8,043 bases of DNA, taken from an uncultured archaeon. GTDB taxonomy: Archaea; Iainarchaeota; Iainarchaeia; Iainarchaeales; CSSED10-239. The notes below the pieces were generated by a model, which saw only the letters and a program-made list of their open reading frames with translations, did no database searches and was not told the origin of the DNA. Numbering within the stretch: the stretch's first letter is position 1; each line of letters starts with the position of its first letter. The position numbers and the translations under genes are program-made. Location of the stretch: positions 1 to 8,043 of the forward strand of contig CAYXAY010000033.1 of NCBI GenBank assembly GCA_964463155.1. The letters run 5' to 3'. Positions 1 through 5,038 of the stretch are shown one piece after another.

Positions 1-229
1 CAATTCCTGTTGCCCCCCCCCCATCGATTACTGCGTTGCAAGGATTTCCATCACTACTATAACAGTTACAGAAAATGCGGGCTTTTATTGAATTTTCGGA
101 AGTAGCAATATTTTTATTTAACACCTTACTAGAATTTCCAATTATAGTGTTTTGCAATAAAAAACCAATAATTAACCCGATTATTAATGAAATTACTATC
201 CAAAGCAATAATTTTTTTATATTTTCCAT
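1..229 (-). CDS. small membrane-anchored cysteine-rich protein, paralog 2 (N-terminal 76 codons only; continues past window start)
   Basis: ATG at 229..227 is preceded by GGAGGG (241..236) with a 6-nt spacer. The frame is open to the window edge. Hand translation: MENIKKLLLWIVISLIIGLIIGFLLQNTIIGNSSKVLNKNIATSENSIKARIFCNCYSSDGNPCNAVIDGGGATGI... It has a basic N-terminus, one hydrophobic helix, and then a Cys-containing region. It aligns with the 248..556 product (K-L-[IL]-[IL]-W, G..IG.L..N...GN, NSIK..I.CNC). It is absent from the supplied track because it is truncated. Confidence 0.55.
   Translation of the reverse strand, partial: MENIKKLLLWIVISLIIGLIIGFLLQNTIIGNSSKVLNKNIATSENSIKARIFCNCYSSDGNPCNAVIDGGGATGI
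13..22. repeat. C10 homopolymer (G10 on the coding strand) inside the truncated ORF
   Basis: Read directly: ten consecutive C at 13..22. On the minus strand they encode GGG GGG GGG G(CA), i.e. Gly-Gly-Gly-Ala. Confidence 0.95.
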
Positions 230-235
230 TTATAT

Positions 236-241
236 CCCTCC
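236..241 (-). promoter_or_regulatory. Shine-Dalgarno-like GGAGGG for the 1..229 ORF
   Basis: The plus strand ccctcc gives minus GGAGGG, 6 nt upstream of ATG 229. It lies only 6 nt after the stop codon of the upstream paralog (248..250), which suggests co-transcription. Confidence 0.55.
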
Positions 242-247
242 TTTTAA

Positions 248-556
248 TTAACTAATAGTATATGTGTCATCTACCCAACCCTCTACACAACAGCCCCTAC
301 AAAATCCATTAATTGCATCTGGTCCTGTTGGTGAAGAAGTAGTATAATGACAACCTGTTCTAGCGCCTGCTGCGTTCTCACAATTACACCGTATATGATA
401 TTTTATTGAATTTAAATTATCTGTGTTTCTATTTGAGGTTGTGCGTGTTGCATTTCCTGTTGTTGCATTGGTTATTAACATACCAATAACTACACCAACA
501 ACTAAAGCAACTAATGCCCAAATTATTAGCTTTGTTTTTTCGCTTTTAATTTTCAT
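248..556 (-). CDS. small membrane-anchored (signal-anchor) protein with a six-cysteine C-terminal domain, paralog 1
   Basis: 102-aa ORF from the track. GGAGA (571..567) lies 10 nt upstream of the ATG. The Lys-rich N-terminus MKIKSEKTK is followed by one hydrophobic helix (LIIWALVALVVGVVIGMLI). Then come two N-x-T sequons (NATTGNATRT) and six Cys in ...RCNCENAAGARTGCHYTTSSPTGPDAINGFCRGCCVEGW... I recognise no family. Confidence 0.65.
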   Translation of the reverse strand: MKIKSEKTKLIIWALVALVVGVVIGMLITNATTGNATRTTSNRNTDNLNSIKYHIRCNCENAAGARTGCHYTTSSPTGPDAINGFCRGCCVEGWVDDTYTIS

Positions 557-566
557 TTTGGTTTCA

Positions 567-571
567 TCTCC
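567..571 (-). promoter_or_regulatory. Shine-Dalgarno-like GGAGA for the 248..556 ORF
   Basis: The plus strand tctcc gives minus GGAGA, with a 10-nt spacer to ATG 556. Confidence 0.45.
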
Positions 572-600
572 TTTTTTAAGTTAATTAATTAAATTAATAT

Positions 601-607
601 AAAAAAA
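601..607 (-). terminator. oligo-T (T7) tract downstream of the ORF6N-type gene
   Basis: A7 on the plus strand is T7 on the transcribed strand, 53 nt after the stop at 661..663. Archaeal termination commonly uses oligo-T tracts. The same AT-rich stretch could instead belong to the promoter of the next gene. Confidence 0.3.
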
Positions 608-660
608 GAGAACCGATATATATATATTCTTCGGCGGAAATTATCTGCTACTTATATTAA

Positions 661-1344
661 TTATAATTTGCTTAATATTTCTAATGCTTCTTTGTCTAAT
701 TTAGAAATTGCAAACCATTTTCTTCCAAGATCTTTAATGGATGCACAAATATGATATATTTCTTTATAATCTATTATAAGAAATCTATCGTGACATTTTC
801 TTAATTCATCTATTTCAATTGCAGAATATTGTTGATTGTATTTTTCTAAATCTAATTTTAATTGTGTAGTTATATTTCCCGTGTAAATTCTTACAGATAC
901 TTCTTTATTTATTTTTGTAAATAAAACTAAAACTGATTCATCTATATAGTTATCAATAAAAATAATTGATTTTCGTGCAGTCTTAAGCAAATCAGATATA
1001 AATTTATATGCATCAAATATCTGCCCATCATAAAATATTCCTTGTGTCTTAACAGCGCTTTTATTTTCAATAGCATCAAATAATTTTTTGAAGTTTTTAT
1101 CTGATTTAATTTGACATTCTAATTGTTTCTTTTCAACAGCATCAATTCTAAAAAATAATTCTGCATTTTTTTGAATAAATCTTCTCATTGATACAACTGC
1201 CCTCATTATTTGAATATTTATTTCTATGGCTCTATCGCTTTTCAATATCCCAGAAAGCATAGCTACACCTTGCTCAGTAAAAGCAAACGGTAGATATTGT
1301 CTTCCTCCGCGTCCACTTTTTGAGGTCACAATTTGTGACCTCAA
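661..1344 (-). CDS. ORF6N-family protein, distal fragment (second half of the ORF6N domain plus a C-terminal PLD-like module); probably part of a disrupted or recoded gene
   Basis: The track ORF starts at TTG 1344..1342, not ATG. It begins in mid-domain with (L)[47 protein letters not shown]. From memory, this matches the conserved second half of ORF6N domains. The C-terminal part ([38 protein letters not shown]...[30 protein letters not shown]) matches the usual C-terminal module of this protein family. Confidence 0.8.
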   Translation of the reverse strand: [227 protein letters not shown]

Positions 1345-1345
1345 A
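1319..1345. repeat. perfect 27-nt palindrome P1 (12-bp arms, 3-nt centre)
   Basis: The plus strand reads tttgaggtcaca-att-tgtgacctcaaa, and the arms are exact reverse complements. It contains the TGA stop of the upstream fragment (1341..1343) and the TTG start of the downstream fragment (1342..1344). It encodes RSQIVTS. Confidence 0.95.
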
Positions 1346-1619
1346 CGATTATCATAAATACGGGTATTCCGGGAGAATTTGAATTATATTCATTTATGTG
1401 GTCGCAATTTGCGACCACATATTCTTTTTCAACTTCTGTTAATTGAAACATAAAATCTTTAGGGAATCTAGAAATATTCCTCTTAACCGCTTGATTCAAT
1501 ACTTTTGTAGAAACTCCGTATAGTTCTGCAAGATCGCTATCAAGCATTGCCTGCACATTTCTAATAGTAAATATTTTCTGTTTTATTTTATTAGAAATAA
1601 TTAATTCGTTATTTTTCAT
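1341..1619 (-). CDS. ORF6N-family protein, proximal fragment (N-terminal half of the ORF6N/KilA-N-like DNA-binding domain)
   Basis: I prefer the start at ATG 1619..1617 ([74 protein letters not shown]...). [33 protein letters not shown] is the hallmark ORF6N N-terminal motif as I recall it. The ORF ends ...[18 protein letters not shown]-stop, before the domain is complete. The track's 12 extra N-terminal codons (1620..1655) look non-coding. Confidence 0.8.
   Translation of the reverse strand: [92 protein letters not shown]
1395..1421. repeat. perfect 27-nt palindrome P2 (12-bp arms, 3-nt centre), related to P1
   Basis: The plus strand reads tatgtggtcgca-att-tgcgaccacata. It shares the core ggtc[g/a]caatttg[c/t]gacc with P1. 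The arms differ from P1 at 3 positions, and each difference is matched by the complementary change in the opposite arm. It encodes VVANCDH in the upstream fragment's frame. Confidence 0.95.
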
Positions 1620-1702
1620 AAGATATATTTGATTTAAACAGATCATTAAAAGCAAACTACACTGTTTTTTGGAAAAACTCTAAAAATAATTGAATAGTTT
1701 GC

Positions 1703-1732
1703 AAAAATACAAAAAATAAGAAATTAGAAAAA
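1703..1732 (-). terminator. cluster of oligo-T tracts directly after the ileS stop
   Basis: The minus strand after TAA (1734..1736) reads GTTTTTCTAATTTCTTATTTTTTGTATTTTTGC, giving T5, T6 and T5 runs. An 8-bp inverted repeat gcaaacta/tagtttgc (1652..1659 and 1695..1702) encloses a weak hairpin at 1664..1678 and is followed by TTTT on the minus strand. Confidence 0.4.
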
Positions 1733-1733
1733 C

Positions 1734-4580
1734 TTAGAAAGAAAAGTAAACGTCTCTTTCTATTAGCTTTTGCTTTGTTGAGGTGGTTGCATCAAATGGA
1801 ACTATTGAAAGCTTTGTTGATGTTGCTTTCTCTATCTGTTTTTTGTTGTTTTCAATAAAAACATTGTCTGAACAAGAGATGCTTAAATCAACTATTTGGC
1901 TTGGAGTCAAGTTGTTTTTCTTTCTTTCTGCTTGTATTACTCTTGTTAGTTCGCTTAGTTCCCATTCGTCTTCAAGGCCAGCTGGGATATCATTGTCAAG
2001 ATAGATTGAAAGGATATCAGAAACCTTTCCTTCCTCAAAGTTTCCTTTCGGTGCGGTCGTTTGAAGAATTACAAATTTTATGTTTGCCATATTGCTTACT
2101 ATGTCTTTTACGCCAGTTAGTTTTTCTGCATCTGGAGAGACAACAACAAGTCTTGGAAGAATCCATCTAAGTCTTTTCTTTGTTCTTTCTCTTGCTGCAA
2201 GTGCTTCTTGAACAATTGAAAGAGCAATCTCAAAGTTGTATTCAAGTTCTTTGTTGATTAATTTTTGATTTGCTGTTGGGAGCTCCTCAAGATGTATTGT
2301 TTCTTTCCTGTCTTTAAACTTCAAGAAAAGATATTCTGTGAGATGTGGAACGACAGGAGACAATAACAATAATAACCCTGAAAAGATATGGTTTGTGACA
2401 TTGTTTTTGGTTTCTCTTTTCTTTATTAATTTTAGATATGTTCTGCTAAAGTCCTCAAGTATAAACCTTTCCAAATCGGCTGTTGCTTTTGAGAAGTTAC
2501 AACCTTGGTAGTTTTTGTGATAGTTTTCTACTAAATAGTTATACTTAGAAAGAATCCATTTGTCTTCTATCTCTAGCTGGTCGTTTTCTATTGTTGGATT
2601 GAATCTTTGACTTTCATCCATTAATGCCATTAATGAATAGATGTTTTCTAAAAGATTAAATATTCTTTTAATATCAACAAACTTCTTTTCATCAATTATT
2701 ACATCCATACCATTGTATTCTCTTGCAAAATAATATCTGTAATAGTCAATTGATGTTTCTGAGAACCTTTGAAGAAGCGGTCTGTCATTACCCATTGATT
2801 TTGATAATTTCTTTTTATCAACAGCAAGAACCATTCCGTGAAGCGCAACAAACTTGTATGGTGATTTGTTAAAACAAATTGCAGAAACAATCATTTGAGA
2901 ATTCCACCAGCCTCTTATCTGATCAGCACCTTCAAGGTTAATGTCTGGTGGCCAGAAATTATTAAACAATTCTTGTTTCTTTGGATAACCAAGGCTTGCA
3001 AAAGAAGCAATTCCTGAATCAAACCAAACATCAAAGATTTCTGGTATCCTCTTCATTGTTCCACCACAAATACATGCATAAGTAATATTATCAATTTCTT
3101 GCTTGTGAAAATCCATATTTGTGTCAATTGAAGGAACCTTGACTTTTAATTCCTCTAAAGAACCAAACACACCAATCTCTTTACAATTATCACATTGCCA
3201 AATTGGAATTGGTATCCCCCAATATCTTGCTCTTGATATCGGCCAATCAGATATTGAATCAAGCCAATTGTCAAACCTGTCTTTTGCCCAGTCAGGATAC
3301 CAGATTACTTCTTCTTTATTTATCTCTTTTAATCTTTCTCTCATTGGTTCAATTCTTAAGAACCATTGCGGGAGAGCAACTTGCAGTAATGGAGAAAAAC
3401 ATCTCCAACATGTTGGGTATGCGTGAGTTATTGATCTTTTTCCAAGAACCATTCCTTTGTCTTCTAGGTATTCAATTATCTTTGGGTCAAGAGATTTTAC
3501 TTTTTCTCCAGAATGCCAATTGATTGTTTTATCATAAACTCCTTCAACTGTTACTGGACAATATGCTGGCATCTTATTTTCTTTACCAACAGTATAGTCT
3601 TCTCTACCATGACCGGGGGCACAATGAACAAGTCCCGTTCCTTCTTCAAGATGAACAAATCTTGCTGAAGATACTACTTTGTAACTGTCTTTTTTTAGCT
3701 CTTCTAGTTTTTCAAGCCATTCGCCAAGGATTGGCTCATATTTCTTTCCAACAAGTTCTTCTCCTTGATATTTTTCCCCAAGAGAATAATCTTGCCATTT
3801 TAGTTCGTTTGTAATTTTTTCTACAAGTTCTTCAGCAACAATATATTTGTTGTTGTCTTTAATCAATTCTATATAAGTGTAATTTGGATGAACCATAATT
3901 CCTAGGTTTGCAGGAAGAGTCCATGGAGTTGTTGTCCATATAACAAAGTAGATATTAGGCATATCAAGAGACTTTAATCTAACATATATTGAGTTATCTG
4001 TCAAGTCTTGATGCTCAATCTCATTAAAAGAAACTGATGTCTCACATGTTGGACAAATATGTACTGGATATTTGTCATGATATAAAAGACCTTTGTCAGC
4101 TGCTTTTTTAAAAACCCACCAGCCGGTCTCCATATATGCTTTGTCAAGAGTCCTGTATGGATTCTTAAAATCCATCCATTGTCCAAGCTCATATATTTCT
4201 TTTGACATGTCTTCAATATGCTCTGTTGCAAACTTATAGCATTCTGTTGTAAACTTATCAATTCCAAATGTTTCAATATCTTCTTTTGATTTTAGACTAT
4301 GTATCTTTTGAACCTTTGCTTCTATTGGAACACCGTGAGTGTCAAAGCCCGGGGTGTCAAGAACAGTGTAACCTGACATTCTTCTGTATCTAATTATTAA
4401 GTCCTTTAGGATTCTGTTCATTGCAGTCCCAAGATGAAGGCTTCCTGAAGCGTATGGCGGACCGTCTATAAAGTAGTAATTTTTCTTTCCTTTCTTTGTT
4501 CTTACTTTTTCAGGAACATTATTCTTTTCCCAATAATCTTTAACTTCTTTTTCAGTTTTGTTTGAAAATTGCTCTGGCAT
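1734..4580 (-). CDS. ileS: isoleucyl-tRNA synthetase (archaeal/eukaryal type)
   Basis: 948-aa ORF. Class I signatures are GPPYASGSLHLGTA (the HIGH-type motif reads HLGT) and KLSKS (the KMSKS motif). IleRS-type motifs are PGFDTHGVPIE, WTTTPWTLPAN (CP1 editing domain) and WPISRARYWGIPIPIW. Cys knuckles are CPTCETS, CWRC and CDNC. Confidence 0.97.
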   Translation of the reverse strand: MPEQFSNKTEKEVKDYWEKNNVPEKVRTKKGKKNYYFIDGPPYASGSLHLGTAMNRILKDLIIRYRRMSGYTVLDTPGFDTHGVPIEAKVQKIHSLKSKEDIETFGIDKFTTECYKFATEHIEDMSKEIYELGQWMDFKNPYRTLDKAYMETGWWVFKKAADKGLLYHDKYPVHICPTCETSVSFNEIEHQDLTDNSIYVRLKSLDMPNIYFVIWTTTPWTLPANLGIMVHPNYTYIELIKDNNKYIVAEELVEKITNELKWQDYSLGEKYQGEELVGKKYEPILGEWLEKLEELKKDSYKVVSSARFVHLEEGTGLVHCAPGHGREDYTVGKENKMPAYCPVTVEGVYDKTINWHSGEKVKSLDPKIIEYLEDKGMVLGKRSITHAYPTCWRCFSPLLQVALPQWFLRIEPMRERLKEINKEEVIWYPDWAKDRFDNWLDSISDWPISRARYWGIPIPIWQCDNCKEIGVFGSLEELKVKVPSIDTNMDFHKQEIDNITYACICGGTMKRIPEIFDVWFDSGIASFASLGYPKKQELFNNFWPPDINLEGADQIRGWWNSQMIVSAICFNKSPYKFVALHGMVLAVDKKKLSKSMGNDRPLLQRFSETSIDYYRYYFAREYNGMDVIIDEKKFVDIKRIFNLLENIYSLMALMDESQRFNPTIENDQLEIEDKWILSKYNYLVENYHKNYQGCNFSKATADLERFILEDFSRTYLKLIKKRETKNNVTNHIFSGLLLLLSPVVPHLTEYLFLKFKDRKETIHLEELPTANQKLINKELEYNFEIALSIVQEALAARERTKKRLRWILPRLVVVSPDAEKLTGVKDIVSNMANIKFVILQTTAPKGNFEEGKVSDILSIYLDNDIPAGLEDEWELSELTRVIQAERKKNNLTPSQIVDLSISCSDNVFIENNKKQIEKATSTKLSIVPFDATTSTKQKLIERDVYFSF

Positions 4581-4917: not shown

Positions 4918-4963
4918 ACTAACGAAAATAGATTATATATCTGTTTTTAAAGAAATACCAAAG

Positions 4964-5038
4964 TGGGAGAAGCAGGATTCGAACCTGCGACCTTTGGTGT
5001 ATAAGACCACTGCTCTGACCAGGCTGAGCTATACTCCC
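4964..5038 (-). tRNA. tRNA-Ile, anticodon UAU (reads AUA)
   Basis: Hand-folded cloverleaf on the minus strand. Acceptor stem is GGGAGUA/UUCUCCC (U-U at 6:67). The 8-9 bases are UA. D arm is GCUC-AGCCUGGUCA-GAGC. Anticodon stem is GUGGU/ACCAA (G27-A43 mismatch) with loop C-U-UAU-A-C. The variable loop is AGGUC and the T arm is GCAGG-UUCGAAU-CCUGC. The discriminator is A and there is no encoded CCA (the next bases are CTT). The anticodon corresponds to plus-strand ata at 5001..5003. Confidence 0.88.

Follow-up and report, generated by a model that had tools for sequence, protein, structure and literature searches.

ORF6N genes carry a short palindrome within their own coding sequence, and sequence comparison makes it likely, in our judgment, that the encoded protein has its cognate binding site in this palindrome, which sits in a permissive loop of the protein's DNA-binding domain. 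The gene in the window (the whole 8043-nt stretch of archaeal DNA analyzed here) is most likely a broken member of the family. Under this explanation a TrmB-like protein would dock on the palindrome within its own gene. Autoregulation or another cis-function, the most likely role, would keep protein and site together as one heritable module. A perfect palindrome is also liable to template switching and rearrangement, and this would account for the unit arrays, frame switches and orphan copies described below.

A DNA palindrome maintained in the ORF6N family

The ORF6N family is large. A profile search at E ≤ 1e−3 returned 43,312 cluster representatives, spread over most bacterial phyla, DPANN and other archaea. 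The genes often have type I restriction-modification (R-M) neighbors (HsdS in eight and HsdM in six of the loci scanned), and just five metagenomic records in a phage collection contain this ORF6N subfamily. None of the 11 papers found to name ORF6N describes a palindrome, and a literature search for the core sequences gave none, apart from one false CRISPR call.

According to the initial annotation of the window, what is conserved would be a nucleic-acid dyad lying within the gene, and homologs were to be checked for dyad symmetry and compensated changes in either reading frame. Both were found. The palindrome lies at the same gene position in ~95% of ~150 homologous genes from Bacteria and Archaea. 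The element is 25–27 bp of dyad-symmetric DNA and encodes a poorly ordered insert that separates two beta-strands coming after the helix-turn-helix (HTH). In the genome set, the longest perfect arm in the linker averages 10.4 bp vs. 4.5 bp in synonymous-codon shuffles, with a shuffle p ≤ 0.01 at 47 of 70 loci. Across 85 aligned units, 91.9% of the cells are paired vs. 70.8% in shuffles, a level that none of 500 shuffles reached; doubly changed cells number 217 as against 58 in the shuffles, and pairing in slid controls is 28–41%. At least 9 of 11 positions are paired in 72 of the 74 loci of an independent metagenome set. Pairing remains at 0.83 or above out to position 12 and is at background level by positions 15–17. 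Perfect arms reach 16–20 bp in a few genes.

The core, TCNCAA-N-TTGNGA, is kept in two reading frames and persists in non-coding relic copies as well. The homologs support the suggestion, made from the window, that the SQ[IF]VT-type and [AT]NCD-type linker motifs both arise from a single palindrome translated in two frames. The SQ phase accounts for 116 units and the NCD phase for 22. Most genes contain a single copy (109 genes), while 27 have two, one has three and one has six. The NCD type and the SQ type never share a reading phase in intact genes, so the existence of two frames is inherent in that of the two types. At the center, 79 units have A and 54 have T. Mismatches within the arms show no preference for wobble pairs, with 61 G.T+T.G vs. 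61 A.C+C.A in 206 unique units (12 vs. 13 in the first set); this speaks against an RNA hairpin.

Selection therefore acts on the DNA and not on the peptide, given the symmetry beyond what the amino acids need, the compensated changes, the absence of a G.T bias, the core shared by two frames and the non-coding relics. The alternative of a conserved peptide with an incidental palindrome is ruled out by the synonymous-codon shuffles and the frame independence. Thus, the proposal of an embedded nucleic-acid dyad is supported.

The predicted recognition helix, its probable site and the TrmB-like build

The predicted recognition helix covaries with the palindrome. We infer that helix position 6 reads the base pair 4 from the dyad center, with Gln for A:T, Glu for G:C, Lys or Arg for C:G and Leu for T:A. 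Expressed as cores, the rule is Q with TCAC, E with TCGC, K/R with TNCC and L with TT[T/G]C. It is obeyed at 110 of 115 loci, in 107 of 107 domains of the first protein set and in 82 of 86 representatives at ≤50% identity, and it is valid in both reading frames. A tree built without the helix and the linker has 40 changes of the core and 38 of the helix residue, but just 43 of the joint character. Among 32 sister pairs, the helix residue differs in none of the 16 pairs with the same core and in 13 of the 16 with different cores (Fisher p 3e−6), and the excess of differences peaks at helix columns 30, 31, 34, and 35. The helix assignment is based on AF2 secondary structure and fold similarity. 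Because of this covariation, an operator for the encoded DNA-binding domain is favored among the meanings that the initial annotation had listed.

Part of the covariation could come from joint recombinational exchange, the helix and palindrome being ~110 nt apart. The sister-pair test speaks against this, as does the two-patch pattern in a pair of close relatives, L001 and L002. Their proteins are 92–97% identical, and their nucleotide identity is 50% in the helix patch, 65–70% in the palindrome patch and 90–100% between the patches. Nucleic-acid pairing between helix codons and palindrome was rejected by inspection as a source of the covariation: the codon first bases follow neither complementarity nor identity.

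AF2 models of homologs contain an HTH (H26–33/H37–46), a long helix (102–143) and a C-domain; in an SQ-type model the palindrome-coded residues form a helix end and a loop of pLDDT <50. The best full-length Foldseek hits are to TrmBL2 (5bqt/5box, E 3e−7), with the TrmB sugar-binding domain (2f5t) also hit. The C-domain has a PLD fold (Zucchini 4ggj, FAM83B DUF1669 5lzk, PLD3 8v07, vaccinia F13; E 4e−4 to 1e−3, aligned rmsd 3–4 Å). At the level of fold, the models point to a TrmB-like family build of HTH, coiled coil and PLD-like domain, and since TrmB regulators are built this way the product is probably a dimer. At the level of sequence TrmB is not matched: a Pfam scan gives ORF6N alone, and a profile search of PDB sequences gives nothing at E ≤ 1. 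The family motif H-D-R-F-x3-D-x7-G-A-S-x-K-D, nearly all of it invariant or at least 90% conserved, departs from the canonical HKD motif (H-x-K-x4-D-x6-G-S-x-N) in that Arg replaces Lys. One member shares ~50% identity with plasmid genes that carry a RhuM family annotation, over residues 120–291, the C-terminal half only. ORF2 of the window (see below) gives no hit to the Pfam RhuM model.

TrmB (TrmBL1/Tgr) has the same domain order, i.e., a DNA-binding domain, a long amphipathic dimerization helix and a PLD-like C-domain. TrmB-family operators are palindromic, the Thermococcales glycolytic motif (TGM) being TATCAC-N5-GTGATA (PMC4158304). The operators are dyads with 6-nt half-sites 11 bp apart, and the ORF6N core, (G/T)(G/A)TC(A/G)C-AANTT-G(T/C)GA.., has the same geometry. 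The TGM is matched exactly by ORF6N variants of the form GGTATCAC-AATTT-GTGATACC. TrmB sites are found at promoters, whereas the ORF6N palindrome is inside the regulator's own coding sequence, and the ORF6N C-domain, unlike that of TrmB, keeps an HKD-like motif. We know of no sugar effector for ORF6N.

Cognate sites embedded in genes include parS in spo0J/parB, the pT181 origin in repC, lacO2 in lacZ and galOI in galE. In these systems, as in ORF6N, a palindromic target in coding sequence limits the codons, and protein and site are co-inherited. Their sites are essentially fixed, whereas the ORF6N site diversifies together with the recognition helix. ORF6N also differs in having two alternative frames, one to six copies, and a position in the loop of the very domain that would read the site. 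R-M controller (C) proteins are small dimeric HTH proteins that autoregulate via palindromic C-boxes. They have the R-M neighborhood in common with ORF6N, but the C-box is upstream of the gene and their fold and size are unlike those of ORF6N. As a counterpoint to the operator reading, a mid-gene site is unusual for an autoregulatory operator.

Two palindromes and a split gene in the window

The two palindromes of the window, both unstranded, are P1 (1319..1345; TTTGAGGTCACAA-A-TTGTGACCTCAAA), defined by sequence, symmetry, and frame, and P2 (1395..1421; TATGTGGTCGCAA-A-TTGCGACCACATA), defined by sequence and symmetry. Each is a perfect 27-nt palindrome, as first annotated, and is odd, with 13-bp arms around one central base (12-bp arms and a 3-nt center is an equivalent description). 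No other odd palindrome in the 8043 nt has arms of at least 9 bp. When the window was resampled 300 times under a first-order Markov model, a 12-bp arm was reached just once, and a search of the window at up to five mismatches found no further copies. The reported distance of 76 nt between the centers was confirmed, as were three differences between the arms (TTTGAGGTCACAA vs. TATGTGGTCGCAA), each with its complementary counterpart in the opposite arm. An inverted repeat of 7 bp noted at the same time, cataaat/atttatg, is present, but it is short and AT-rich and has no weight.

The ORF6N gene is on the minus strand and is split at P1/P2 into 92-aa and 227-aa ORFs. ORF1 (1341..1619, minus strand; 92 aa from ATG 1619, open from TTG 1655 as ORF 1341–1655) encodes the N-terminal two thirds of the ORF6N DNA-binding domain. 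It matches Pfam PF10543 (ORF6N) over profile positions 1–62 with 79.1 bits (cut-off 27.8, E 3e−22) and ends with a TGA inside P1. ORF2 (661..1344, minus strand; 227 aa from TTG 1344, which overlaps the TGA) matches the Pfam ORF6N profile over positions 55–85 with 31 bits. Its database copy (P0002) starts at GTG 1329, 9 nt past the GAGG of the P1 left arm. ORF2 comprises, on the minus strand, an SQ-type linker, LPFAFTEQG (1267–1287), a coiled-coil helix (~1105–1230) and the PLD-like domain (661–1044), with the motifs HDRFLIID (769–792) and CASIKDLG (724–750). No single frame runs continuously through the ORF6N domain, which had been described as interrupted; it is split across two frames at 1341–1344, with frame B open from ~1383. 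Three-frame translations likewise agree with the two-frame reading proposed for the palindromes (VVANCDH in frame A, LRSQIVTS in frame B). P2, close to the end of ORF1, is translated (Y)-V-V-A-N-C-D-H-(I) in the NCD frame, and P1, at the start of ORF2, L-R-S-Q-I-V-T-S-K in the SQ frame.

The codons of the predicted recognition helix, placed by the AF2 HTH of homologs and the covariation, are at 1479..1508 on the minus strand (hand-counted coordinates), with Gln43 (codon 1491–1493) at helix position 6. The P1 core, GGTCAC, is of the type that fits this Gln helix, as Gln helices pair with TCAC cores. The P2 core, GGTCGC, is of the type that goes with a Glu helix, the combination seen in the closest relative, L001. 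The central 21 nt of P2, GTGGTCGCAAATTGCGACCAC, are exactly the L001 palindrome, with arms of 13 bp in the window vs. 10 bp in L001. P2 is part of a minus-strand tract (1398..1470) that is 97–100% identical to L001 by 30-nt sliding identity; upstream of the tract, identity drops to 67–83%. From these identities, the tract looks to have been imported from, or converted by, an L001-like allele.

The linker in the window thus consists of two units, the NCD-frame P2 followed by the SQ-frame P1 that matches the gene's own Gln helix. P2 is a foreign-type (Glu-type) relic with a decayed tail. That tail (1346..1394, minus strand) is homologous to the NCD-type linker tails of L001 and L002 and has several small indels; aligned to them it gives a shuffle p of ~0.015 with many 1–4-nt gaps. 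The conserved tail elements CDH, KFS, and PY are now in three different frames after P2, KFS being in frame B. Of the suggestion that a palindrome-plus-linker module is present twice in tandem, the second unit stands, but an intact second copy does not, the sequence after P2 being the decayed NCD-type remnant. We also rejected a recent tandem duplication of one 76-nt unit: the unit types differ, the palindromes are 81% identical and the tails cannot be aligned by eye.

The spacing of 76 nt is 1 mod 3, and that of in-frame NCD-then-SQ genes is 2 mod 3. A P2–P1 distance of 77 nt would keep the frame; the actual 76 nt splits the gene in two. The 1-nt deficit most likely occurred within ~1372–1386 (AATTCAAATTC). 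The conceptual removal of 74 nt made in the initial annotation does give a protein that aligns end to end with uninterrupted ORF6N proteins of ~295 aa, covering 100% of its own length. The split layout is reproduced base for base in a second assembly, Logan contig SRR11582140, which equals window 2–2521. The suggestion of a chimera or duplication that broke the gene fits the local break (the frames, the decayed tail and the L001-like tract). Most likely, the window gene has become a pseudogene or was broken recently. It may be a functional split gene, both flanking ORFs being intact.

Displaced copies, rival readings and significance

Flank copies of the palindrome cluster within 400 nt of the gene, and a further copy near the start or stop is found at ~10–15% of loci. 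Across stretches of 50 kb and 41 kb from two Legionella plasmids, every family-type palindrome lies either within the gene or 15–18 nt past its stop, where the copy is followed by a decayed SQ-type tail. In the two Gln-helix relatives the matched 3′ copy is intact or nearly so (11/11 positions in L220, 10/11 in L022). In the relative that has exchanged its N-half for one of the Glu type, the 3′ copy is mismatched, with 9/11 positions paired. Copies are found 11–37 nt ahead of the start codon in L153, L125, and L035, and L157 has two orphan N-domain cassettes upstream. Several flank copies mismatch the helix of the adjacent gene (L157, L047, L211) and are therefore read as relics of displaced alleles. 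Auxiliary operators were rejected, as many flank copies have a core that does not match this helix. Relic copies freed of coding constraint become more perfect, e.g., CCGG to CCAG in L054 and L153. A dispersed palindromic mobile element (REP/MITE/RPE-like) was rejected, since in the window and the two Legionella stretches the copies are not scattered but stay in or beside the ORF6N gene. So was a regulon with sites at many promoters, there being no extra copies in the window or the two Legionella stretches. Terminator-like hairpins carrying the same 21-mer occur in viral contigs.

The linker type switches between close relatives such as L168 (NCD) and L161 (SQ), the C-parts of which are 91% identical, and L163 and L052 (86% identical). 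Identity in the N-part correlates weakly with that in the C-part (r = 0.35). Both swap boundaries that could be located are further downstream than the palindrome, ~200 nt downstream of FTEQG in L168/L161 and at the start of the PLD domain in L219/L220, and the palindrome was rejected as the preferred crossover point. Polymorphic toxin/Rhs/CDI orphan modules and hsdS shufflons are likewise displaced partial copies beside an active gene, with modules swapped among close relatives. ORF6N differs from them in having no consistently adjacent recombinase, in its short relics, and in that the swapped unit is a DNA-binding module plus its own site. The R-M context of the hsdS comparison is found in PMC9881135.

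A rather unlikely alternative is that the gene's own protein recognizes the palindrome as a substrate and not as an operator, either because the PLD-like domain would nick or rejoin DNA or because hairpin breakage would drive cassette exchange; the site would then be a point of recombination or insertion, with N and C modules being shuffled and orphan pieces left behind. It would accommodate the orphan copies that begin or end at palindromes (Legionella, L153, L125, L035, L157), the linker-type switches with their weak N/C correlation, the HKD-like motif that is invariant in the family on a PLD-folded domain, and the window itself as a junction of two unit types. However, both located swap boundaries are away from the palindrome, Arg takes the place of the catalytic Lys in the HKD motif and the PLD-like domain of TrmB has no nuclease role. 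Rearrangement is moreover expected as a by-product of any perfect palindrome. A substrate role is compatible with the base-specific helix covariation but alone leaves it unexplained. Slightly less probable still is that ORF6N-PLD proteins are self-targeting DNA enzymes, in which the HTH would dock on the own-gene palindrome and the HKD-like domain would nick or transfer strands. If true, such an enzyme would cause alleles to exchange "reader plus site" cassettes and the gene to spread through Bacteria and Archaea, and would represent a new kind of site-specific recombination or homing, with the recognition site encoded in the recognition domain's own loop.

It is doubtful that the break in the window is an assembly or sequencing indel, the real gene being an intact two-unit (NCD+SQ) ORF6N of ~320 aa. 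One extra base anywhere in ~1346–1383 restores a single ORF, intact NCD-then-SQ genes do exist (L055, L152), and the direct repeat AATTC-A-AATTC at 1374–1384 is prone to slippage. Yet no long homopolymer is involved, and the NCBI and Logan SRR11582140 contigs, probably from the same reads, agree over 2520 nt.

We think it improbable that the palindrome is functionless, an ancestral quasi-palindrome that perpetuates itself by intrastrand template switching in replication, with one arm copied onto the other, and is tolerated in a permissive loop. Perfect hairpins that arise and persist through template switching have been documented, as have compensatory changes made in one step (PMC8794818). 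Perfect arms, one-step compensated changes and flipped centers, all known from template-switch mutagenesis (PMC8794818, PMC5453318), are also seen in ORF6N. The arms are mostly perfect, with 16–20 bp in some genes, the counts of A and T at the center are as expected from flipping, and unconstrained sequences are more perfect (the L054 and L153 relics, and the longer arms of P2 compared with L001). Since arms of 12–13 bp (16–20 bp in a few genes) exceed what an HTH half-site needs, template switching would contribute mutationally. It explains the repair of symmetry but not why the core covaries with a helix 110 nt away. A functionless palindrome leaves unexplained why the residue at helix position 6 follows the inner base pair in either frame, why the same core is kept in two frames and in non-coding relics, and why pairing has a fairly fixed limit of 12–13 bp. 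Template switching is more likely how changes become symmetric, rather than why the site persists.

The initial annotation had also suggested recoding or translational coupling, and an mRNA hairpin (a pause, processing or frameshift-stimulating element, or a bulge-helix-bulge (BHB) intron), with the window ORFs joined by recoding or splicing or coupled through TTGA, is the explanation to which we give the least credence. The strand does fold into two 12-bp hairpins (DNA parameters, z = −6.8), removal of 74 or 77 nt would restore the canonical protein, the stop and start overlap in TTGA with GAGG 9 nt ahead of the GTG, and both ORFs are intact. These suggestions are unsupported. A sense or antisense RNA hairpin was rejected because G.U is tolerated no more than A.C, and Rfam families gave no match apart from one tRNA elsewhere. 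A scan of 1250–1500 on the gene strand for an archaeal BHB intron (two 3-nt bulges, a 4-bp helix between them and an intron length restoring the frame) gave 12 weak candidates, none of 74 or 77 nt and none at the P2/P1 junctions. From reading the sequence, GTT-TGA has no slippery heptamer, and the shift needed is −1, the wrong direction for a prfB-like +1 frameshift. The tail between P2 and P1 looks decayed, and uninterrupted relatives need no such device. No intrinsic terminator was called on the gene strand; P2 was called, but just on the opposite strand, owing to a T-run that the EVEKEY codons produce in that orientation, and family units are flanked by ..CTCAA(A/G).. rather than T-runs.

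A cognate site carried in the gene, the explanation we prefer, would bear on a large family, often found within R-M loci, for which no function or target has been described. A constraint on the DNA has left the "RSQIVTS" and "VANCD" motifs in the Pfam profile as by-products, and a single DNA site read in two frames can pass for two protein subfamilies. For annotation, broken or multi-unit linkers are the expected products of a palindrome-bearing hotspot. The helix-core rule provides a natural specificity table, one helix position vs. one base pair with all four bases represented, that could be of use in design. If each gene carries its own binding site, the targets of thousands of uncharacterized DNA-binding proteins would be readable from sequence.

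The split ORF6N gene and its palindromes

The ORF6N gene is encoded on the minus strand as two open reading frames (ORFs). ORF1 runs from an ATG at 1619 to a TGA at 1341 (92 aa) and matches positions 1-62 of the Pfam ORF6N profile. ORF2, on the same strand, runs from a TTG at 1344 to 661 (227 aa) and contains profile positions 55-85 and a long C-terminal part. Direct reading and a repeat scan identified P1 (1319-1345) and P2 (1395-1421) as perfect odd palindromes with 13-bp arms and a single central base. Their arms differ at three positions, every one mirrored. No other odd palindrome in the whole 8043-nt window, which has a GC content of 33%, has arms of at least 9 bp, and a 12-bp arm was reached in 1 of 300 first-order Markov resamples of the window. 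In the alternate frame, P1 would read E-V-T-N-C-D-L and P2 W-S-Q-I-A-T-T (three-frame translation). The initial annotation described this arrangement in six points, all of which were correct on direct reading, repeat scan, and ORF and Pfam placement. The extra 7-bp inverted repeat that it listed is present, but is unremarkable given AT-rich DNA. A terminator-like call on the plus strand (1395-1431), opposite the gene, consists of P2 and the TTCTTTTT after it; the T-run in TTCTTTTT is simply the antisense of EVEKEY codons.

A family-wide palindromic DNA element

We assembled 80 genomic loci from archaea and many bacterial phyla (48-63% identical) and 80 metagenomic loci, the latter retrieved by peptide patterns outside the palindrome. 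In the genomic set, the longest perfect arm in the linker averaged 10.4 bp vs. 4.5 bp in a synonymous-codon control with replacement codons drawn from each gene's own usage (top replicate mean 4.8), and 47/70 loci reached p ≤ 0.01 against this control. At least 9 of 11 arm positions were paired in 72/74 metagenomic loci, 36 of them perfect. The arms vary widely yet symmetrically, e.g., GAGGTCACAA/TTGTGACCTC, GAGGTTCCAA/TTGGAACCTC, GGTTTCAA/TTGAAACC and GGTCAAAA/TTTTGACC, with further left arms GAGGTGCCAA, GGTATCACAA and GACATCACAA. Across 85 aligned units (single palindrome copies), 91.9% of cells were paired vs. 70.8% in column shuffles, a level reached by 0/500 shuffles, and 217 cells were doubly changed vs. 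58 expected. Sliding the partner columns by 1-3 positions gave a pairing of 28-41%. Pairing remains at or above 0.83 through position 12 from the center and has dropped to background at positions 15-17, which gives a unit of 25-27 bp. The dyad symmetry and compensated changes that the initial annotation proposed looking for in homologs are thus present, by codon control and column shuffles and in both locus sets.

The palindrome is translated in two ways. In phase 0 it encodes [LK]-R-S-Q-[IF]-[VA]-T-S (SQ-type, 116 units) and in phase 1 [LV]-V-[AT]-N-C-D-[RH] (NCD-type, 22 units), which bears out the earlier proposal that the linker motifs SQ[IF]VT and [AT]NCD are one palindrome in two frames. 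There is one unit in 109 genes, two in 27, three in one, and six in one. In same-type arrays the spacing is a multiple of 3 and mostly falls within 36-54 nt. A is the central base of 79 units and T that of 54; this is the Ile/Phe alternation of SQ[IF] and the product expected from flipping of the palindrome center. One metagenomic locus (L155) has a linker of ~130 codons in which at least six units are arrayed in frame, their subtypes being mixed (RSQIVTS, RFQIGTL, RSQNVTL, MSQIVSL, RSQFATS, RFQFGTL, RSQITTL).

Covariation with the recognition helix

We compared helix position 6, the residue four before the invariant Arg-Asn of ..AVKRN..RFP (Glu42 in the homologous protein P0001, Gln43 in the window), with the palindrome base that lies at position 4, counting from the dyad center. 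Gln occurs with a TCAC core at 52/56 loci, Glu with TCGC at 34/35, Lys or Arg with T(T/G/A)CC at 19/19, and Leu with TT(T/G)C at 5/5, so that 110/115 loci obey the rule overall. Examples of the first two pairings are a Legionella pneumophila plasmid protein, WP_058452974.1 (Gln helix, GGTCAC), and the L. oakridgensis protein WP_025386783.1 (Glu helix, TATCGC). Textbook contacts are those of Gln with adenine, Glu with cytosine on the opposite strand, Lys/Arg with guanine on the opposite strand, and an aliphatic side chain with the thymine methyl; by analogy, the four pairings correspond to these. The rule is valid separately in both frames, and within the NCD frame alone it is followed by Glu in 9/9 and Gln in 8/9. 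It is therefore the base pair, rather than the amino acid encoded there, that partners the helix residue.

A tree of the family module minus helix and linker (a crude UPGMA of short segments) has 40 changes of the palindrome core and 38 of the helix residue, but only 43 of the combined character. Among 32 sister pairs, the helix residue differs in 0/16 with the same core vs. 13/16 with different cores (Fisher p 3e−6), and the excess differences cluster at helix columns 30, 31, 34, and 35. A unit of the predicted class was found in 107/107 domains of proteins P0001-P0120 (26/26, 40/40, and 6/6 for single-unit proteins) and in 82/86 from the 150 best cluster representatives (50% identity). The proteins of L001 (the contig of P0001) and a second locus, L002, are 92-97% identical. 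Nucleotide identity between them is 50% over 30 nt of the turn and helix start, 65-70% at the palindrome, and 90-100% in between, and helix and palindrome are two separate patches that change together. Recombination is frequent in the family and could inflate the covariation. A second association is that of helix position 5, with Asn accompanying A or T at arm position 9 (96/98) and Lys/Arg accompanying G (12/12). The two DNA positions are too widely separated to be touched directly by both helix residues, and the position 5 association may simply mark the GGTATC clade.

AF2 models of P0001 (NCD-type) and P0052 (SQ-type) place, in order, a beta-hairpin, the helix-turn-helix (H26-33 and H37-46 in P0001), a strand (FMFQL), an insert, a strand (PYAFTE), a ~40-residue helix, a disordered stretch, and a C-terminal alpha/beta domain. 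The palindrome-coded residues are located in the insert in both models, as two short helices in P0001 and as a helix end and loop with pLDDT <50 in P0052. The best full-length Foldseek match was TrmBL2/TrmB (E 3e−7). In TrmB regulators, a coiled coil holds the dimer together, and every known operator is a palindrome, e.g., TATCAC-N5-GTGATA (PMC4158304). The half-site geometry is alike in the ORF6N palindrome, and the MVSQ.VIPS subtype, GGTATCAC-AATTT-GTGATACC, matches this TrmB motif exactly. Foldseek grouped the C-domain with the PLD-fold proteins Zucchini, PLD3, FAM83B DUF1669, and F13. Over its C-terminal half, which comprises the coiled coil and PLD-like domain (residues ~120-291), the family has ~50% identity to plasmid genes of Bacteroides/Parabacteroides with a RhuM family annotation (H12-H35), and the ORF6N and RhuM families appear to have a common C-module behind different N-domains. 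Gene neighbors are diverse, with type I R-M subunits the commonest. From comparative sequences and predicted structures, on which all of our binding claims are based, we infer that the helix reads the palindrome, and the comparative evidence for this is strong.

A role of the palindrome as a recombination site or enzymatic substrate of the gene's protein is compatible with such reading and fits both protein recognition and the orphan pieces described below. Arguing against it, both locatable swap boundaries are downstream of the palindrome, and the lysine of the HKD motif is replaced: the HKD-like motif H-D-R-F-x3-D-x7-G-A-S-x-K-D is nearly invariant in the family, with Arg in place of the PLD enzymes' catalytic Lys. 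In the window's copy (724-792, minus strand), Cys also replaces Gly (ICASIKDLG). Template switching is a process that maintains palindromes (PMC8794818) and could uphold one that has no function. It accounts for perfect arms, flipped centers, and arm extension, but not for the helix covariation or for core-base conservation in two frames, and is better regarded as a mechanism of symmetrization than as the cause of persistence. RNA-level devices, including the recoding device proposed in the initial annotation, and a BHB intron are rejected. A scan of the gene strand at 1250-1500 for bulge-helix-bulge geometry gave no candidate of 74 or 77 nt. If the unit acted as an RNA hairpin, from whichever strand, G.T and A.C mismatches should differ in frequency, and the two are equal (61 vs. 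61 in 206 unique units; 12 vs. 13 in the first set), which places the constraint at the DNA level.

Displaced copies and a proposed history of the split gene

The palindrome is not a dispersed repeat. There is no third copy in the window, and two Legionella plasmid stretches (50 and 41 kb) have family-type copies only within the gene or 15-18 nt past its stop codon. Within 400 nt of gene ends, flank copies are more frequent (0.17-0.22 per kb) than further away (0.05-0.09), compared with 7.4 in the linker, and many of them are relics. Upstream of an intact ORF6N gene, L157:335-1434 contains two orphan N-domain cassettes, namely an NCD-type one that stops directly behind PYAFTEQ and an MVSQ-type one that has decayed. 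The NCD-type cassette agrees with the active gene in its first ~50 residues but not in its linker, which suggests that "reader plus site" modules have displaced one another in series. Decayed linker tails adjoin the flank copies at two other loci (L035, L022). We also considered flank copies as auxiliary operators; this was ruled out because the relic type is often mismatched to the helix of the adjacent gene.

The stand-alone copies 3′ of the Legionella genes (L220:20909, L219:35708, L022:1659), each 15-18 nt beyond the stop codon, have compensated changes between species though non-coding (GGTCAC/GTGACC vs. GATCAC/GTGATC). In the two relatives with a Gln helix the 3′ copy is of the matching type and has all or nearly all positions paired (11/11 in L220, 10/11 in L022), and a relative with its N-half replaced by a Glu-type module has kept the old-type copy with 9/11 positions paired. 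An exact search of viral contigs for the 21-mer core GAGGTCRCAAWTTGYGACCTC resulted in 54 loci (L083-L136), 14 of them in ORF6N linkers and a few beside ORF6N genes. About 30 resemble terminators, a hairpin between an A-run and a T-run, and their stored stretches contain no ORF6N gene (e.g., L083:8329-8349, L091:10720-10740, L098:5416-5436); several of these are one phage region seen repeatedly.

When ORF1 up to P2 is joined to ORF2 at P1, the resulting protein can be aligned from end to end with thousands of ~295-aa proteins that have no interruption, and the top matches are mostly from DPANN archaea. The closest relatives, P0001 (79% identical) and P0003 (78%), have one NCD-type linker each. 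L001 is syntenic with the window, with a class-I aminoacyl-tRNA synthetase upstream. In the window, a tRNA-Ile gene (anticodon TAT; 4963-5038, minus strand; ARAGORN and Rfam agree) sits between the class-I aminoacyl-tRNA synthetase gene and an OB-fold SSB-like gene. The P2 core is unchanged in L001, and L002 has another perfect 27-nt palindrome, GAGGTTATCACAAATTGTGATAACCTC, at the equivalent position. From palindrome to FTEQG is 113 nt in the window vs. 36 nt in L001, a difference of 77 nt. Alignment of the 49 nt separating P2 from P1 to the L001 and L002 NCD tails is weak but significant (shuffle p ~0.015) and contains many 1-4-nt gaps. What is still recognizable is spread over three frames, with CDH in that of ORF1, KFS in that of ORF2, and PY in the third.

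Since intact genes read the NCD-type palindrome in phase 1 and the SQ-type in phase 0, an NCD-then-SQ gene that is in frame needs a center spacing of 2 mod 3. Two such in-frame genes, like the putative ancestor of the window gene, were found (L055, L152), and the spacing in L055 is 59 nt. The window's 76 nt is one base short of an in-frame value, and adding one base anywhere in ~1346-1383 would restore a single ORF. An assembly indel is a possible cause of this local frame loss, and of that alone; the Logan assembly of run SRR11582140 has the split sequence identical base for base.

The helix of the window gene is of the Gln type, for which the family rule gives GGTCAC, the core of P1. The P2 core, GGTCGC, is of the Glu-paired type, as in L001 (helix T-K-R-L-N-E). 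From RFP to the end of P2 the window is 97-100% identical to L001, and in the upstream helix region 67-83%. In the simplest history, a gene of the SQ type that had P1 and a Gln helix would have recombined with an L001-like allele and acquired a segment ending in an NCD unit (P2 and tail), creating a two-unit linker; the redundant NCD tail would then have decayed and the frame been lost. P2 is still perfect, with 13-bp arms vs. 10 bp in L001. As both ORFs are intact and 83-86% identical to L001 in nucleotides, the break may be recent, or the separate halves may be useful on their own. A second frame break at the palindrome was seen in a family gene on a human gut metagenome contig (L194), where a 1-nt deletion inside the palindrome (GTTTGAGGTCACAAATTGTGAC-TCAAACG) causes the upstream part to read F-E-V-T-N-C-D.

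Intragenic cognate sites are known, e.g., parS in spo0J, the pT181 origin in repC, and lacO2. Palindromic operators of the TrmB type are well described (PMC4158304). Our literature search found no mention of a palindrome in ORF6N genes, and the core sequence was absent apart from one false CRISPR call. What seems to be new is a site located in a loop of the very domain predicted to read it, which diversifies together with the recognition helix in Bacteria as well as Archaea, and which varies in copy number and can be translated in one frame or the other. Given the two frames and the variable copy number, the conserved "protein motifs" of this family are shadows of a constraint on DNA.
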